Origin: Nostoc sp. PCC 7120 = FACHB-418
GTDB taxonomy: Bacteria > Cyanobacteriota > Cyanobacteriia > Cyanobacteriales > Nostocaceae
Length of the DNA stretch: 32,000 nt
Reading direction: 5' to 3'
NCBI RefSeq assembly: GCF_000009705.1
Contig: NC_003272.1
Location: 2,190,001 to 2,222,000 of the forward strand
Shown here: positions 25,300 through 31,837 of the stretch, piece by piece
Numbering within the stretch: position 1 is the stretch's first letter
How the letters are laid out: every line of letters begins with the position of its first letter
The notes under the pieces: generated by a model
Databases searched by the model: none
The model's input: the letters and a program-made list of their open reading frames with translations, nothing else
What the model was told of the DNA's origin: nothing
Position numbers and translations under genes: made by a program

Positions 25300-26013
25300 G
25301 TGATGCCTTCCAACTTCGAGCTAAGACTCAAACACTTAGAAGACAACATTAGACAAGACCAAGATTTGCTCAAAAAGTATCAAGATTCTTTGCGATATGA
25401 AGATGATCCACGCCGCCAGGCTAAGTACGAGCGGGAAATTCAGCAATTGCGTGAATCGGCTAATTGTTATCAGAAGGAATACGATGAACTGCAAATGCAA
25501 ATAACTGGTGAGTCAACTGTACAGATGCAGAACGTAGCTACCCAGTTGCAGCAGATGAACACCAAAATAGATAGATTGTATGCTGGTCAGAAGGCTATCT
25601 ATGAAAACATTAATCACTTACGTCAAGGACTACTAGCTCGTTATGATGCGGGTGAACAGAGGATAATTGCGGCACTTACTGAACAGTTAGATCAATCTCA
25701 GATGATTATGATTGCTACGGTTTTAGATGCAATAGAAACTAATCAAGTAACAGATGGAGAAATGCAATTAATCTTACAAGGAATACAGCAAAATATCAAT
25801 AAATTACAACAAAGTGGTACTGCTTTACCTCCTAGTCAATCAGCATTAGTGGAAGTGATCAATGCCCCTGAATTAGATTTCAAGCACAGATTGAAAGTTG
25901 GTATACCTATTGTCCCTTTTATTTTGGACTATGAAGGTGAATTAGAGCTAGGGACAGGAATAGACTTAGAAGCTGCTTGGAAAACTTTGATTATGCGATT
26001 GAAAGGAAAGTAA
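25300..26013 (+). CDS. Coiled-coil protein A of the ABC-3C/Lamassu-like operon; N-terminal helical hairpin shared with protein B, C-terminal hydrophobic/Gly motif
   Basis: 237 aa (GTG 25300 or ATG 25303). Heptad-rich throughout, with no catalytic motif seen. The C-terminus reads KHRLKVGIPIVPFILDYEGELELGTGIDLEAAWKTL. There is a 3-nt gap to the next gene. Confidence 0.75.
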   Translation: MMPSNFELRLKHLEDNIRQDQDLLKKYQDSLRYEDDPRRQAKYEREIQQLRESANCYQKEYDELQMQITGESTVQMQNVATQLQQMNTKIDRLYAGQKAIYENINHLRQGLLARYDAGEQRIIAALTEQLDQSQMIMIATVLDAIETNQVTDGEMQLILQGIQQNINKLQQSGTALPPSQSALVEVINAPELDFKHRLKVGIPIVPFILDYEGELELGTGIDLEAAWKTLIMRLKGK

Positions 26014-26016
26014 ATT

Positions 26017-26646
26017 GTGGAGATGGAGCAAGAACGTGAACAAGATTTAAAGAAACACATTGAAGAGGATAGAAAATTACAAAAAAAATTAGAAGATCAA
26101 TATCGATATACAGAGAATGAAAAAGAGAAGATTAAATTAGAAAAGGATATCAAAGAAATTCGACAAAGAATTTCTGGTTGGGAAGAAGAAATAAGCACAA
26201 TTAGTATGCAACGAAGAGAATCTATAGCTCGTGAAATGCCCTCTATTACATTTGATGAGCTAGATGTTGTGACTAAATTTATTCTTGGTATGCAACCTGC
26301 TTCTCCTGAAATTAACTTTAGCCTCACAGACATAACACAAAAAATATCAAAAAATCATCTCACCCAAGAGGTTCATTCTCTAATAACAATGGGAATGGGT
26401 AAAGTCAAAGATGTTGGTCGTTTTATTGAACATAATGCTGTTCTACGTCCTGAATTTCCAGACAAATTGACAGCAGGATTTCTTACGGAGTATCAAAAAT
26501 TATTACAAAAAGGAATTACAGGAGACGCTTTATTTGAGTCTTTACGTCAATTTTCCTGTGGTAATAGTTCAGATTTTAGGAAAGCCGCAGCTGGCTTGGC
26601 AGTTCTATCATATCTCTTCGAGAAATGTGAGGTGTTTGAGCGATGA
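26017..26646 (+). CDS. Protein B: N-terminal helical hairpin plus a C-terminal helical domain resembling ABC-three-component-system C-terminal (CTD) domains
   Basis: 209 aa (GTG 26017 or ATG 26023). Its stop overlaps the ATG of the next small gene (ATGA at 26643-26646). The C-terminal end AAAGLAVLSYLFEKCEVFER resembles endings I recall from ABC-3C effector-component CTDs. This is unverified. Confidence 0.7.
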   Translation: MEMEQEREQDLKKHIEEDRKLQKKLEDQYRYTENEKEKIKLEKDIKEIRQRISGWEEEISTISMQRRESIAREMPSITFDELDVVTKFILGMQPASPEINFSLTDITQKISKNHLTQEVHSLITMGMGKVKDVGRFIEHNAVLRPEFPDKLTAGFLTEYQKLLQKGITGDALFESLRQFSCGNSSDFRKAAAGLAVLSYLFEKCEVFER

Positions 26647-26787
26647 CCAATTCTATAGAATATTCTTCTACTTATAACTCCTCATTGATTTTACCAACAA
26701 AACATATTTCTACTATAGGAATCCTATTTGATTTGTGAACAAGACCAAGAGATAATACGGAGAGGGATAAAAGTCTAATAGTAAACA

Positions 26788-27357
26788 ATGAAAAGTCAGC
26801 ATTTACAAGCTACTACACTTGCGGGGGAAGTATCGCAGCAATATTTAAAAGAGGAAACTGCACTGAATGCGATTGCTGAATTACAAGATTTTATAGATAT
26901 GTGTCCAGATGCGCGTGAAGTAAGGAAAGCATTGGCAGTCAAGCTAGTTTATCAAGGTTACTTGTATGATGAAATCCAAAAAATTTTAGACGTATCGCGA
27001 GGGTCAATCACAGGCTGGAAGCAAGCCTATGAAGAAACTGGAATTGACGGACTGCGACTAAACTACAAAGGGAGAAAGAGCTATCTGAATGCTAAACAAC
27101 TCCAAGAGGTGTTGAGCTGGCTACAAACAAAAGATTGTTGGGAGCTTGGGGAACTAGAGTATCAACTAGCTTTTGAGTATGACGTAGTTTATGAGTCAAA
27201 GCAAAGCTACTACGACTTGTTCTCCGAAGCAGGAATCAGTTGGAAGAAAACCACAAAGGTAAATCCGAAAGCCGATGAGAATGCTGTTGCAGAAAAAAAA
27301 AAGAGATTGAAACATTGCTGGCAAATAACCGAGAAGAAATCGAAACAGGAAAGTTAA
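26788..27357 (+). CDS. IS630 transposase, N-terminal (HTH DNA-binding) frame
   Basis: 189 aa with helix-turn-helix-like segments (YDEIQKILDVSRGSITGWKQAY). An A10 run at 27293-27302 lies inside the overlap with the downstream frame. Confidence 0.85.
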   Translation: MKSQHLQATTLAGEVSQQYLKEETALNAIAELQDFIDMCPDAREVRKALAVKLVYQGYLYDEIQKILDVSRGSITGWKQAYEETGIDGLRLNYKGRKSYLNAKQLQEVLSWLQTKDCWELGELEYQLAFEYDVVYESKQSYYDLFSEAGISWKKTTKVNPKADENAVAEKKKRLKHCWQITEKKSKQES

Positions 27358-27899
27358 GAGTATTGTTAATTGATGAGTGTCATTTAATGTGGGGAGATTT
27401 AAGTGGTTATGTATGGGGAAAAAGTGACCAAGAAATCGCAGTCCCAGTTGTCAACGAGCGAGATAAGCAGACATACTATGGGGCAGTTGACTATCTCCTT
27501 GGAGAATTAGTTCTCAAAGCTTATGATGCTGGAAACTCAAAAAATACTATCAACTACCTAGAATACTTACTAGCTAACTCTCCCGACCAGCGATTACTAA
27601 TTTTTTGGGATGGGGCTAGCTACCACCGTTCCAAGGAAATTAGAGGTTTCTTGGACTCTGTTAATCAAAGCTTACCAACCGAGCAATGGAAAATACACTG
27701 TGTCCGTTTTGCCCCTAATTGCCCAGTACAAAATCCGATAGAGGATATTTGGTTACAAGCCAAAACATGGGTTAGACGTTTTTGTGCTTTAATTCCTTCA
27801 TTTTCACATTTAAAGTGGATATTTGAGTGGTTTATTAGACACACTACCTTTGATTTTGACACTCTACAGATGTACGGAACTTATTCAAAAATCAAATAG
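27315..27899 (+). CDS. IS630 transposase, catalytic DDE frame (-1 relative to the upstream frame; frame open from 27279)
   Basis: The motifs are LLIDECH, IFWDGASYHRS and NPIEDIW (DDE/D triad). A -1 shift on the A10 run would read ...AEKKKEIETLLANNREEIETGKLRVLLIDECH, a continuous transposase of about 370 aa. Confidence 0.85.
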   Translation: MLANNREEIETGKLRVLLIDECHLMWGDLSGYVWGKSDQEIAVPVVNERDKQTYYGAVDYLLGELVLKAYDAGNSKNTINYLEYLLANSPDQRLLIFWDGASYHRSKEIRGFLDSVNQSLPTEQWKIHCVRFAPNCPVQNPIEDIWLQAKTWVRRFCALIPSFSHLKWIFEWFIRHTTFDFDTLQMYGTYSKIK

Positions 27900-28102
27900 G
27901 ATTCCTATAGTTACTCTTTGTTAGGAGTAGGTGCTAAAATATTAGAACAATTGTACCAACCAAGAACAGTTTCATCTCTTTGGAGTGCTGTTTCTACCAT
28001 GCCAGAGGTTGCTACATTTGAACGTTTTGTACTAACGCTTGATCTTCTATACACTATAGGAGCAATTGAGATGGAGATGGGATTACTTCGGAGGTGTCAT
28101 CA

Positions 28103-29854
28103 ATGATTCATGCTGTTCGTTGTAATCAGCCATCATTTAAAACAGTTGAGTTCAGACCTGGTTTAAATATAGTTTTAGCAGATCGTACAGAAGATTCTGG
28201 ACAAAGAGATTCCCGTAATGGATTGGGTAAATCTACTCTCATTGAAATTATTCACTTTTGTCTTGGAGGAACAATTCAGAAAGCTAAAGGACTTGGTTCT
28301 AGAAATCTTCGTGGTTGGGCTTTTAGTTTAGAGCTTACACTTGCAAATCAAATTATCACCGTCACAAGAAATACTGAAGATAAGACTGAGGTAGTAATAG
28401 ATGGAAATACTACTAACTGGCCTATTCAACCCAAAGAACAAGAAGGTCACAAGGTTCTCAGTTTGGATGACTGGAAGGCTGTTTTAGGAAATTTAACATT
28501 TGGATTAAGCATTGATTATGATAAGAAATACAAGCCTACTTTTAGAGGACTTATTTCTTACTTTATCCGTCGTGGAAGAGACGCATTTTCTACACCATTT
28601 GAGCATCACAAAAATCAACTGAGTTGGGAAAAACAAATTAATAATTCTTTTCTCCTTGGTCTGGCTTGGGAAGACGCAAGAGAATTGCAACTTTTAAATG
28701 ATAAACAAAAACTGATAACAGATATTAAAAAACTTAAAAAAGATACAGAATCTGGCGTTGCGATTGGAATTTTAGGTTCGTTAGGTGAGCTTGAAGCGTT
28801 AAAAGTTCAGGTCGAAGCTCAACTACGTGAAAGAAAAGAAACATTGAACAATTTTCGTGTAGCAGAGCAATATCATGAATTAGAAGAAAGAGTTAATTTT
28901 TTAACATCGCAAATTCATGAGGCAACAAATAAAAATATTACTGACCAGAAATTACTAGAGTTTTATCAATCTAGTCTTAAATCAGAAGATGAACCAAGAC
29001 CAGATGATATCGTTAGTATATATGAGAATGCTGGCATTGAATTGCCAGGATTAGTAGTTAGAAGGCTAGAAGAAGTAGAAATATTTCATCGCCGATTAAT
29101 AGAAAATCGTAGAGAGTTTTTAGGAAGTGAAATCAAACGTCTTAGGCGGGATCTAGTTTCTAGAGAAAATTTTATTCGAGAAAAAAGCAATGAGCGTGCG
29201 GAATTATTAGAAGTTTTAAAGACGCACGGTGCTTTGGAAGAGTATACAATGCTACAAGAAATTTATCTTGATAATGTAGCTAACCTAAACGAAATTAATA
29301 AACGTATCGAAGAATTAAAACAATTTGAAGAAGAAAGAAGTAGCCTAAAAATTGAAAAAGAACTCTTGCTTCAACGTGCTAGACGCGACTATGGAGAACG
29401 AAATGAGCAAGCTGAACGTGCTATTGATTTATTCAGAATAAACTCTCGATTTCTCTATGATACTCCTGGAAGACTTATCATTGATGTAGGTAAAAATGGT
29501 TTTACTTTTGGAGTAGAAATTGGGCGAGATGGTAGTGAAGGTATCGATAAAATGAAGATATTTTGCTATGATTTAATGCTGGCACAGCTTTGGTCAGAAC
29601 GAGATCCTTCACCCCGAATACTAATTCATGATAGTACAATTTTTGATGGTGTAGATGAAAGACAAATATCTCTTGCTTTACAGTTAGTAGATAGAGAGGC
29701 TAGAAGCCGTGGCTTTCAATATATCTGCACATTAAATTCAGACATGATTCCACAGTCAGAGTTTTCTGCACTTGACTTTAATTTTCATTCCTTTGTCAGA
29801 CTTAGACTTACAGATGAGAATGAAGAAGGAAGATTATTAGGTATTAGCTTTTAG
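28103..29854 (+). CDS. SMC/Rad50-like ABC ATPase with long coiled-coil insert (ABC-three-component / Lamassu LmuB-like; DUF2326-like)
   Basis: 583 aa from ATG 28103 (the ORF track starts at GTG 28094). Walker A is SRNGLGKST. There are about 250 aa of heptad repeats (residues about 190-440), then GSEGIDK, Walker B RILIHDS and D-loop FDGVDE. The ATG overlaps the stop of the small gene (ATGA). Confidence 0.8.
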   Translation: MIHAVRCNQPSFKTVEFRPGLNIVLADRTEDSGQRDSRNGLGKSTLIEIIHFCLGGTIQKAKGLGSRNLRGWAFSLELTLANQIITVTRNTEDKTEVVIDGNTTNWPIQPKEQEGHKVLSLDDWKAVLGNLTFGLSIDYDKKYKPTFRGLISYFIRRGRDAFSTPFEHHKNQLSWEKQINNSFLLGLAWEDARELQLLNDKQKLITDIKKLKKDTESGVAIGILGSLGELEALKVQVEAQLRERKETLNNFRVAEQYHELEERVNFLTSQIHEATNKNITDQKLLEFYQSSLKSEDEPRPDDIVSIYENAGIELPGLVVRRLEEVEIFHRRLIENRREFLGSEIKRLRRDLVSRENFIREKSNERAELLEVLKTHGALEEYTMLQEIYLDNVANLNEINKRIEELKQFEEERSSLKIEKELLLQRARRDYGERNEQAERAIDLFRINSRFLYDTPGRLIIDVGKNGFTFGVEIGRDGSEGIDKMKIFCYDLMLAQLWSERDPSPRILIHDSTIFDGVDERQISLALQLVDREARSRGFQYICTLNSDMIPQSEFSALDFNFHSFVRLRLTDENEEGRLLGISF

Positions 29855-29991: not shown

Positions 29992-30360
29992 TTGAATAAA
30001 GAGGATATAATCTACCAACAAGTTATAGCAATTGCTAGTAGTTACGGAATTTTTGATTGCATTCCCTGTGCTAGAGCAATCAAAGAATTTTTGATCAGAC
30101 AAAGTATTCATGGCAAGCATATTAAAATAGATACAAATTCTCAAGATTCAATTTATGGCAGGATTTATGATGATAGCATTGGTGAATTGATTGCTACTAC
30201 AGGTCATCATGAAGGTGTTATAATTGAGGTAAATGGCTTAGAAATTGTTTTTGATAACATCCACCATCAAGGAATAACGCGATTAGACTGGATACAAAAT
30301 CTCTATTCACCTATTCTAGATGCAGGATTAGAGTTTCAAATCACAGAAAGTTACTTTTAA
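29992..30360 (+). CDS. Stand-alone papain-fold-like toxin domain protein (Tox-PL-like), TTG start
   Basis: 122 aa with no Met other than the TTG-encoded start. The Cys is at a helix N-terminus (GIFDCIPCARAIKEFL), followed by GHHEGVIIEV and VFDNIHHQG. That is the Cys...His...Asp/Asn order of papain-like peptidase/deamidase toxins. The assignment is by eye and unverified. Confidence 0.5.
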   Translation: MNKEDIIYQQVIAIASSYGIFDCIPCARAIKEFLIRQSIHGKHIKIDTNSQDSIYGRIYDDSIGELIATTGHHEGVIIEVNGLEIVFDNIHHQGITRLDWIQNLYSPILDAGLEFQITESYF

Positions 30361-30383
30361 CCTAGAGAATTAGTGAGTCAAGT

Positions 30384-30725
30384 ATGAATAATTTATACAA
30401 CTTACTGCAAAAGATCAAAAAAAGACCTGCGATGTACTTAGGTAGAAATTCTATTTTTAGCCTGCAAGCATTTTTAGACGGCTACTACTTTGCACGTCGA
30501 GAAATTGGTATTAACTTAACAGAAGAAGAAGTAGAATTTCAAAACTTTTTACAATGGATAAGACACAGATTTAATGTAGAAACAGGTCAGTTATGGTCAA
30601 GTATTATTCTTTTCCATTCAGCAGATGAAAAAAGTGCAGTGGATAGATTTTTTACTTTGTTTGAAGAATTTAATCAACAGCATAAAAATCAGGAAATAGA
30701 AAAAATTGATCAGGTGGTTACGTAA
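30384..30725 (+). CDS. Putative cognate immunity protein
   Basis: 113 aa, 23 nt downstream of the toxin-like gene. The N-terminal KKRPAMYLGRNSIFSLQAFLDGYYFA pattern recurs in polymorphic-toxin immunity proteins, by my recollection. Confidence 0.45.
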   Translation: MNNLYNLLQKIKKRPAMYLGRNSIFSLQAFLDGYYFARREIGINLTEEEVEFQNFLQWIRHRFNVETGQLWSSIILFHSADEKSAVDRFFTLFEEFNQQHKNQEIEKIDQVVT

Positions 30726-30889: not shown

Positions 30890-31120
30890 ATGCTGCAAAT
30901 CATCAAAGCAACCTGCACCAACGGCGAACTTATTTTAAGTGAAAAACTCAGTTCCGAATTAGAAGGTAAAACCCTGCAAGTTATGATTATTGAACCCAGC
31001 GAACCTAATCAAGATCATCAAGCCTCAAAAATACAGCAATTTCTAGCACGAGTTAATAACTACTCTTTCCAAATACCCGTAGATTACAAATTTAATCGAG
31101 ACGAAATTTATGAAAGATAA
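30890..31120 (+). CDS. VapB-type antitoxin (small beta-rich N-terminus, cyanobacterial type)
   Basis: 76 aa. IIKATCTNGELILSEKL...LQVMIIE is typical of antitoxins paired with PIN toxins. It overlaps the PIN gene by 11 nt. Confidence 0.6.
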   Translation: MLQIIKATCTNGELILSEKLSSELEGKTLQVMIIEPSEPNQDHQASKIQQFLARVNNYSFQIPVDYKFNRDEIYER

Positions 31121-31430
31121 AATTTTTCTCGATACTAACCTCTGGATTTATCTCTATGCTAAAAATCCGCTCGAAAAATCCCAACAAGTTGCAGAAATCA
31201 TTAAAAATAATTATTCATTTCTGCTAGTTAGCACTCAGGTCTTAGGTGAATTATTTCATTTTTTAACCAGAAAAAAATCACATCTAAAACTGATGCAACC
31301 ACGATTATATCAGATATAGTTAATACCTTTCCAATTCAGGCAATTAACACAACAGAGGTTATACAAGCATTAGAAATTCACGCTAAATATAACTACTCTT
31401 ATTGGGATAGTTTGATTATACAGCACTTTG
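31110..31430 (+). pseudogene. vapC: PIN-domain (VapC) toxin gene, frameshifted in an A7 run (31271-31277) and 3'-truncated by an IS
   Basis: Frame 1 reads MKDKIFLDTNLWIYLY...VSTQVLGELFHFLTRKK. Continuing in the -1 frame gives ITSKTDATTIISDIVNTFPIQAINTTEVIQALEIHAKYNYSYWDSLII. The sequence then breaks off at TA 31429-31430, where the IS begins. Confidence 0.7.
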
Positions 31431-31477
31431 TCTAACGGTTTGGTACAGTAGTTGAGAAGATAAAAGTAAAAAATCAG

Positions 31478-31837
31478 ATGAAACCCTACTCAGTAGACCT
31501 GCGCTCAAAAATTATTAGCGTTTACGAAGCGGGAAATACATCTATTCGCAAAGTAGCAGAAAGATTCAAGGTAAGTAAAAATACAGTACAAAACCTCGTG
31601 AAGCGAAAACGAGAAAAAGGGACGCTAGAGCCAAGTGTAGCGACAGGAGGAAAACCAAGCCAAGTATCTGGTTATGAACAACAGATAGAGCAAATGGTAG
31701 CAGAACATCTAGACTATACCCTAGCCGAATACTGTGAGTATTGGGAAGAAAAGACAGGGGTAAGGTTAAGTGAGAGTGCAATGTGCAGATTTCTTCAGAA
31801 ACAGAAGCTCACCCTCAAAAAAAACAGTACGAAGTAG
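31478..31837 (+). CDS. IS630-family transposase, N-terminal HTH frame
   Basis: 119 aa. YSVDLRSKIISVYEAGNTSIRKVAERFKVSKNTVQNLVKR is a typical IS630 HTH. The frame ends just after an A8 run (31817-31824). Confidence 0.85.
   Translation: MKPYSVDLRSKIISVYEAGNTSIRKVAERFKVSKNTVQNLVKRKREKGTLEPSVATGGKPSQVSGYEQQIEQMVAEHLDYTLAEYCEYWEEKTGVRLSESAMCRFLQKQKLTLKKNSTK

Follow-up and report, generated by a model that had tools for sequence, protein, structure and literature searches.

The neighbouring genes alr1851 and alr1852 of Nostoc (Anabaena) sp. PCC 7120, here called A and B, encode proteins whose N-termini are two homologous copies of one antiparallel α-hairpin of about 63 residues. A makes up the constant part of a cassette of two translationally coupled genes, in which the downstream one joins the same hairpin to a variable module, and in B this module is CTD10, a C-terminal domain (CTD) of the ABC-3C type. 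As the best explanation, to which we give a probability of roughly 0.6, we propose that the hairpin is a homotypic adaptor of the effector-associated domain (EAD) type and that A is recruited in trans to an ABC-3C/Lamassu-like system via B. Two independent lines of evidence from sequence comparison support the adaptor, namely the displacement of an HNH nuclease by the hairpin and the conserved cassette of A with a hairpin-led partner. All coordinates given here are positions in the window, a 32,000-nt stretch of the PCC 7120 chromosome, and the features are listed in Table 1.

Lamassu/ABC-3C systems are currently viewed as assemblies of a sensor ATPase, a middle component (MC) and an effector whose fused CTD serves for docking. 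If the proposed recruitment is true, their modularity extends from fusion of the effector in cis to its recruitment in trans. The hairpin and the C-terminal module of A are moreover an unnamed domain pair present in more than 900 sequence clusters and without a Pfam or NCBIfam model. In cyanobacteria, Chloroflexi and archaea that are filamentous or consortial, this pair connects ABC-3C with STAND NTPases, TIR, FGE-sulfatase and EAD7 in a single network. For prokaryotic immunity the module of A is a candidate scaffold or output of a new kind, and the hairpin is small enough to serve as a tractable model of adaptor specificity. Our literature search found no paper on alr1851, alr1852, alr1855 or alr1856, and searches on DUF2326 and on LmuA and adaptors returned nothing relevant.

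Homology and fold of the hairpin

The gapless alignment of A residues 23–61 (nt 25366–25482) with B residues 21–59 (nt 26077–26193) has 11 identities in 39 positions and a BLOSUM62 score of 67. The original prediction, made from the letters of the window, had quoted these peptides and their identities correctly, and the match at the family level turned out to be longer and far stronger. Not one of 100,000 in-register shuffles of B reached a score of 67 (mean −16). On this A–B diagonal the highest-scoring 39-mer reaches 77, a value that none of 5,000 comparisons of shuffled B1–64 with A1–110 attained (mean 26, maximum 56), and BLASTP of A against B with composition adjustment gave E = 2e-5. Using family alignments of 115 A and 64 B sequences, HHalign aligned A 7–68 with B 5–66 at a probability of 99.0% (E 2.8e-18, score 87.3), compared to a score of 17 for the reversed profile and a mean of 10.9 and a maximum of 21.1 for 150 column shuffles. 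We call the two hairpins homologous because of the BLASTP result, the shuffle controls and the HHalign comparison with its own controls; the predicted similarity thus also held at the profile level.

A chance likeness of charged coiled-coil sequences was considered as well, as both regions are rich in Glu, Lys, Arg and Gln and form heptad-like helices, and as shuffles that keep the hydrophobic/polar pattern attained the pairwise score of 67 in 209 of 100,000 trials (0.2%). We give this explanation practically no weight. It is refuted by the shuffle and profile controls, in which no shuffled profile scored above 21.1 compared to 87 for the true pair, and 47 diverse hairpins could be aligned over 65 columns with zero gaps, sharing the signature L-L-K-x-[YL]-E-D-x-L-R-[YL]-E-x-D-P-[RK]. 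A hidden Markov model (HMM) built from this hairpin alignment recognised only A (E 1.7e-27) and B (E 1.2e-20) among the proteins of the window and had no match in the other coiled coils tested, seven coiled-coil-rich ABC ATPases from metagenome loci. The strict N-terminal position of the hairpin and the strict gene adjacency in 101 loci, both described below, also speak against chance.

In the AlphaFold2 models the hairpin has a predicted local distance difference test score (pLDDT) of about 90–97 in both proteins, and the break between the two helices lies at the same place in A and B, just as it had been read from the sequence. The original prediction spoke of a helix-turn-helix hairpin, of which the hairpin was right; the fold is an antiparallel α-hairpin (a coiled-coil hairpin) and not a DNA-binding helix-turn-helix. 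Fold and sequence searches with A and B in PDB and BFVD gave nothing significant and generic hairpins only. Among these, the ING4 dimerisation domain (4afl) and encapsulated ferritin (5da5), whose hairpins pair into four-helix bundles, superpose on the hairpin with a root-mean-square deviation of 1.1–1.6 Å over 63–67 residues, but with Foldseek E values above 1 this likeness is not significant, is generic to helical hairpins and comes without any sequence relationship.

The hairpin is a small non-catalytic domain sited at the protein terminus. In 61 of 63 matches other than A and CTD10 proteins (loci L049–L128) it starts within the first 30 residues, mostly at residues 1–8. A search with the hairpin only in a collection of 5.8 billion proteins returned four short fragments only.

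Table 1: Features of the A–B locus, with positions in the 32,000-nt window.
Feature	Positions	Strand	Basis
Gene A = alr1851, 237 aa	25300..26013	+	Open reading frame (ORF); 100% identity to alr1851
A hairpin domain, residues 7–69 (helices 5–33 and 37–69)	25318..25506	+	HHalign, hairpin HMM, AlphaFold2
A C-terminal module, residues 73–237	25516..26010	+	AlphaFold2: long helix 74–127, then five shorter helices
Best-conserved motif of the A family, residues 188–227	25861..25980	+	Conservation in 155 non-redundant members
Gene B = alr1852, 209 aa, hairpin and ABC-3C CTD10	26017..26646	+	ORF
B hairpin domain, residues 5–67 (helices 2–31 and 35–76)	26029..26217	+	HHalign, AlphaFold2, hairpin HMM
B CTD10 domain, residues 69–209	26221..26643	+	Pfam, PADLOC, identity to relatives
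MC6 gene, 5' fragment	26643..26715	+	Translation MTNSIEYSSTYNSSLILPTKHIST matches N-termini of intact orthologues
IS630-family insertion within the MC6 gene	26716..27907	+	Inverted repeats, TA duplication, HTH_33/HTH_23 and DDE_3
MC6 gene, 3' part; listed ORF (62 aa) from TTG at 27918	27910..28106	+	Pfam MC6 4.5e-13
ABC ATPase, DUF2326, 586 aa, LmuB-like	28094..29854	+	Pfam DUF2326 1.8e-41, AAA_23; PADLOC PDC-M68B 6e-201

The hairpin in place of the nuclease and the two-gene cassette

On the plus strand of the window the xfp phosphoketolase gene is followed by A, B, an IS630-family element, the MC6 ORF and the gene for the DUF2326 ABC ATPase; the ATG at 25303 is probably the true start of A. 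Residues 65–208 of B match the PADLOC model PDC-M68A (1.3e-40), while the matches to the Pfam families CTD10 (17.3 bits, cut-off 28.1) and CTD11 are weak. Together with its CTD10 relatives, MC6 and DUF2326 this bears out the earlier claim that B continues into the CTD-like domain of an ABC-3C/Lamassu-like system. The AlphaFold2 model of B has a pLDDT of 84 and a predicted template modelling score of 0.72. The stop codon of B and the ATG of MC6 overlap (ATGA), and the translated ATPase shows a Walker A motif GLGKST and a C-terminal Walker B motif LLIHD. The locus shares with LmuA-LmuC-LmuB and PDC-M68 the order of CTD protein, MC and ABC ATPase as well as the homology of MC6, of DUF2326 with its type of coiled-coil insert and of the CTD10 ending. 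It differs from them by a fourth conserved gene, A, ahead of the CTD protein gene and by the missing effector domain at the N-terminus of the CTD protein, as residues 1–67 of B consist of the hairpin only, without an enzymatic effector domain. PADLOC models for LmuB match the ATPase only weakly (3.7e-10 or worse), for which reason the system is probably a relative of Lamassu rather than canonical Lamassu; its best match is the candidate system PDC-M68, and the PADLOC scan of the window gave no LmuA or LmuC match.

The closest relatives of B that lack the hairpin are proteins of about 250 aa with an N-terminal HNH nuclease and a CTD10 (PF20275), and to these the C-terminal two-thirds of B are 41–52% identical. 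Their loci contain three genes (HNH-CTD10, MC6 and DUF2326), are without gene A and adjoin a type IIG/ISP restriction enzyme. In cyanobacteria, on the other hand, every complete locus of a hairpin-CTD10 protein possesses A, which lies directly upstream of B except in L059 and L060. The hairpin thus occupies the effector position of the sister systems and appears together with gene A: it has displaced the HNH nuclease in B, and B stands in the place of LmuA.

In L059 and L060 A is encoded on the opposite strand and is convergent with the B-MC6-ATPase operon, so that the genes are neighbours but not co-transcribed. B itself is variable. The window and the syntenic locus L004 share 84–85% nucleotide identity in the flanks and in xfp, A, the MC and the ATPase, whereas their B proteins (L004 6001–6633) are only 44% identical. 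Nucleotide similarity is lost some 50 nt after the start of B, and most of the difference falls on CTD residues ~65–140. Apparently B has two deeply diverged alleles, exchanged as a cassette.

Genome and metagenome collections were scanned with A as seed. This resulted in 123 loci, of which 112 were distinct and extended 250 nt or more beyond A; these were counted. In 101 of these the gene directly 3' of A opens with the same hairpin. The hairpin continues into CTD10 in 30 partners, then followed by MC6 and the DUF2326 ATPase, and into other modules in the remaining 71. Pfam assigned to 55 non-redundant partners NB-ARC (11, with TPR), STAND-like AAA_16/22 (about 8), FGE-sulfatase (8), GUN4 (4), HEAT (4), NACHT (3), Clp_N (3) and TIR (3); EAD7 and TPR-only partners also occur. 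Examples of such pairs are A with hairpin-TIR in L031 and A with hairpin-FGE in L041. The neighbourhoods of other hairpin proteins and of the HNH relatives without A hence agree with the gene pattern that was proposed from the window and that follows the logic of effector-associated domains. A is not specific to ABC-3C, and it is better seen as part of a mobile cassette of A and a hairpin protein that has captured CTD10.

A and its partner are tightly joined. Among 87 unique junctions a 3-nt spacer occurs in 52 and a 4-nt overlap in 21, and a Shine-Dalgarno-like GGAG lies within the last codons of A; the tight junctions and this GGAG indicate translational coupling from A to its partner. In the window (26011–26019) the TAA that ends A and the GTG that opens B lie in one frame, 3 nt (ATT) apart. 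This arrangement, and the in-frame spacer being kept in 52 of the 87 junctions, might suggest that A and B are one protein by read-through or through a recent nonsense mutation, and that the hairpins are an internal repeat. We consider such a read-through fusion very improbable as judged from the loci compared: the stop is kept in all of them, the 4-nt overlap shifts the frame in 21 of 87, the Shine-Dalgarno-like sequence precedes the start of B, A and the B operon lie on opposite strands in L059 and L060, and no A–B fusion turned up among the 953 clusters of the A family.

Hairpins of direct neighbours are more alike than those of non-partners, with a mean score of 118.5 compared to 105.1 (68 unique pairs; none of 10,000 permutations attained the value of the true pairs). 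In loci from ANME-1 and Methanotrichaceae the identity between the two hairpins is 60–77%, and the archaeal copies may thus have been duplicated recently or have evolved in concert. The archaeal cassette, found in ANME-1, Methanotrichaceae and related metagenome contigs (L035, L045, L048, L086), consists of A and a hairpin-NB-ARC-TPR protein, and in L045 the pair comes after a HerA-Mre11-Rad50 operon.

Further variants of the cassette were observed. Two hairpin-led genes follow a single A in L062 (5789–7057 and 7117–8316), L072 and L083, so one A may serve several partners. On the conjugative plasmid NZ_CP064884.1 of Tolypothrix sp. PCC 7601 (L129, 46826–59479) A is paired with a hairpin-TPR protein of 201 aa, with an AAA_21/SMC_N-type ABC ATPase encoded on the upstream side of the pair and a vWA protein of 752 aa on the downstream side, which is another ATPase-linked context. 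In Tychonema (L003, 7661–7903) the opposite strand encodes, immediately upstream of A, an 80-aa NCAB1 (NACHT-associated) protein that adjoins a ParE/RelB pair, a further link to the network of STAND conflict systems.

Proposed recruitment of A in trans and its alternatives

The A family comprises 953 clusters (50% identity) with E<1e-3, of which 191 have E<1e-30. No family in Pfam, NCBIfam or PHROG matched A, and no relative was found in viral contigs. The AlphaFold2 model is all-alpha (pLDDT 80), with the hairpin followed by the long helix and five shorter ones. Best conserved in 155 non-redundant members are the hairpin and the motif P.LD.KHKLK...PIIP.LL.YEGE.ELGSG.NL...W. A has no transmembrane segment, and a role of its C-terminus as membrane pore is unsupported, as the highest 19-residue mean of the Kyte-Doolittle hydropathy is 0.86. 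Of the 150 best-scoring representatives 148 were fetched, and the 70 sequences of at least 285 aa among them were scanned for additional domains. Many carry an extra N-terminal domain, including AAA/STAND NTPases, DUF4062, EAD7, TIR, Cap17-like, WD40, REC, CHAT, SIR2, GUN4 and nucleotide cyclase. The C-terminal module is also found alone or behind TIR, SIR2, CHAT, REC, STAND, EAD7 (EAD7-A and REC-A fusions exist) or DUF4062, and in L032, L040, P0236, P0237 and P0289 a STAND NTPase, the hairpin and the module of A form one single polypeptide.

The EAD principle describes small non-catalytic helical domains that are common to a core component and to separately encoded proteins (PMC7159879, PMC8195603). 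Neighbouring copies are most alike (PMC7159879), and homotypic interaction is the presumed way in which these domains recruit (PMC7159879, PMC8195603). Like EAD1–12 and the bacterial Death-like domains the hairpin is a small, non-catalytic, all-alpha terminal domain, it is present on a core component as well as on a separately encoded neighbour, and adjacent copies are more alike. It is likewise fused to STAND NTPases, TIR, FGE/FGS and GUN4, enriched in filamentous or multicellular prokaryotes, and co-occurs with EAD7 as a separate domain in some partners. In contrast to the EADs it has two helices and about 63 residues instead of a Death-like helical bundle, it is tied to one constant module in the fixed order 5'-A/3'-hairpin-X and not to many alternative effectors, and in the window it is linked to an ABC-3C CTD. 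Pfam EAD models had no match in A or B at E<0.1. We regard the finding as a new EAD-like adaptor along with a new constant module that captured, among others, an ABC-3C CTD.

For Lamassu it was described that only the CTD of LmuA contacts LmuB and LmuC, that it is sequestered there and that it oligomerises after release (10.1101/2025.03.14.643221). As only the CTD makes contacts, the N-terminal domains of LmuA are free to be exchanged (10.1101/2025.03.14.643221). Since in B the nuclease has been displaced by the hairpin, A would be recruited in trans, and we infer that the two hairpins bind each other and that the signal runs towards A as the output. The hairpins of A and B would pair, probably as a four-helix bundle, so that each B carries one A, and CTD10 of B is predicted from homology to dock in the complex of MC6 and the ATPase. 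By analogy to Lamassu, this complex would hold the CTD until foreign DNA is sensed and then release it; oligomerisation of the CTD would cluster the bound A molecules, whose C-terminal module would act as output. The logic would be the same with a STAND NTPase as partner, which oligomerises once activated. The archaeal pairs of A and hairpin-NB-ARC-TPR lie between housekeeping or metabolic genes without any other candidate output there, and A is therefore the only candidate output of these loci.

Several points weigh against recruitment of A as an effector. The higher similarity between hairpins of the same pair is confounded by shared phylogeny, B scores below the Pfam threshold for CTD10, and the PCC 7120 locus is disrupted by an insertion sequence (IS) and hence uninformative on activity in this strain. 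The C-terminal module of A possesses neither a transmembrane segment nor an enzyme signature nor a structural neighbour in PDB or BFVD, so that A is called an effector by elimination. Furthermore A is fused behind bona fide effectors such as TIR, SIR2, CHAT and Cap17-like domains, and because of these fusions a role as scaffold, regulator or sensor fits A as well as that of an effector.

The last two points also favour a different explanation, in which the homologous hairpins self-associate separately or dock on a common third surface such as the coiled coil of the ATPase, and A is an accessory regulator or safety factor (an antitoxin-like inhibitor or a chaperone). Coupled pairs with a constant upstream and a variable downstream gene are also reminiscent of toxin-antitoxin or regulator layouts, and the hairpin resembles homodimerising hairpins like that of ING4. 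Nevertheless we think this rather unlikely: many partners (STAND with TPR, FGE-sulfatase, GUN4, HEAT/Clp_N and CTD10) have no toxic domain to be restrained, the archaeal two-gene loci hold no other candidate output, and the partner-specific similarity of the hairpins is what one would expect for a pair in contact.

The direction might also be reversed, with A as a constant sensor or trigger recogniser that feeds or gates the ABC-3C machine through B. Constant components of related conflict systems, e.g. EACC1, have been proposed as sensors or coordinators (PMC7159879), and some partners of A are effectors (TIR). This appears improbable to us, and more so than an accessory regulator, as A is highly conserved (60–80% identity across cyanobacteria, above the less conserved B) and thus unlike arms-race sensors, as most partners are classic sensor or switch proteins (NB-ARC/NACHT with TPR), and as an effector nuclease fills the position of the hairpin in the sister ABC-3C systems. 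The two-gene EACC1 system (Kaur et al. 2020, System 4) also combines a 5' gene that stays constant with a 3' gene whose domains vary strongly. Its partner begins with a caspase, though, and no domain is in common; that A is EACC1 itself was rejected, as EACC1 is a single-transmembrane domain and A is soluble and all-alpha.

Returning to A as recruited effector, the arrangement is comparable to recruitment by CARD–CARD and other Death-fold contacts (Apaf-1/caspase-9, NLRs), where a STAND NTPase bears at its N-terminus the same adaptor as a separate protein that acts downstream. About 20 of the 55 partners are NB-ARC, NACHT or AAA_16 proteins, and activation would also be by induced proximity. 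Fold and sequence are unrelated, however, and the analogy is functional only, with the recruited A lacking a protease or any known activity. More tentatively, and less likely than the recruitment itself, A could be a hitherto unrecognised non-enzymatic executioner or assembly module, activated purely by induced proximity, which serves in multicellular prokaryotes as common output of very different sensors (ABC-3C ATPases of the Lamassu type, STAND NTPases with NB-ARC or NACHT, and FGE/GUN4/TPR binders) via a two-helix adaptor. The pair would then be a prokaryotic counterpart of Death-fold adaptor signalling with a different and much simpler fold, and the system in the window the first of the Lamassu type with a trans-recruited effector.

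The IS630 insertion and the region downstream

The MC6 gene of PCC 7120 is broken after codon 24 by an IS630-family element of 1,192 bp with terminal inverted repeats of about 28 nt (26712–26743 / 27880–27911), a TA target duplication and a transposase that is split into two ORFs (HTH_33/HTH_23 and DDE_3). Removal of the element and of one TA copy restores the MC6 frame ...HISTSYSLLGVGAK, as it is present in intact orthologues, whose loci are without the IS630 element and have a whole MC6. Examples of intact operons are Cylst_3850 with its three downstream genes in Cylindrospermum stagnale PCC 7417 and the locus of Tychonema LEGE 07199. As the element splits the MC6 gene, the copy of the system in PCC 7120 is probably inactive or altered.

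In the metagenome-assembled genome that carries the syntenic locus L004 (6620–7900) a different IS630 element is inserted into the same MC6 gene, 9 nt away. The two insertions point either to repeated inactivation of the gene or to a hot spot of the target site; that disruption recurs hints that the system is costly to carry. Four cyanobacterial loci (L022, L044, L047, L076) are degraded by deletions that join the hairpin of B or a truncated A to the C-terminal part of the ATPase, which suggests that the function of the system is frequently lost.

Directly after the ATPase gene (29992–30725) a Tox-PL-2 papain-fold toxin protein (122 aa, Pfam 2.7e-30) and an ORF of 113 aa without a family are encoded, possibly a toxin/immunity pair of the polymorphic-toxin type. 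Further downstream, inspection by eye revealed small ORFs resembling an antitoxin and a truncated PIN-like (VapC-type) toxin (30890–31319) as well as the helix-turn-helix N-terminus of another IS630-like transposase (31478–31837), and the region 30890–31837 appears to be a decaying island of defence genes and mobile elements.

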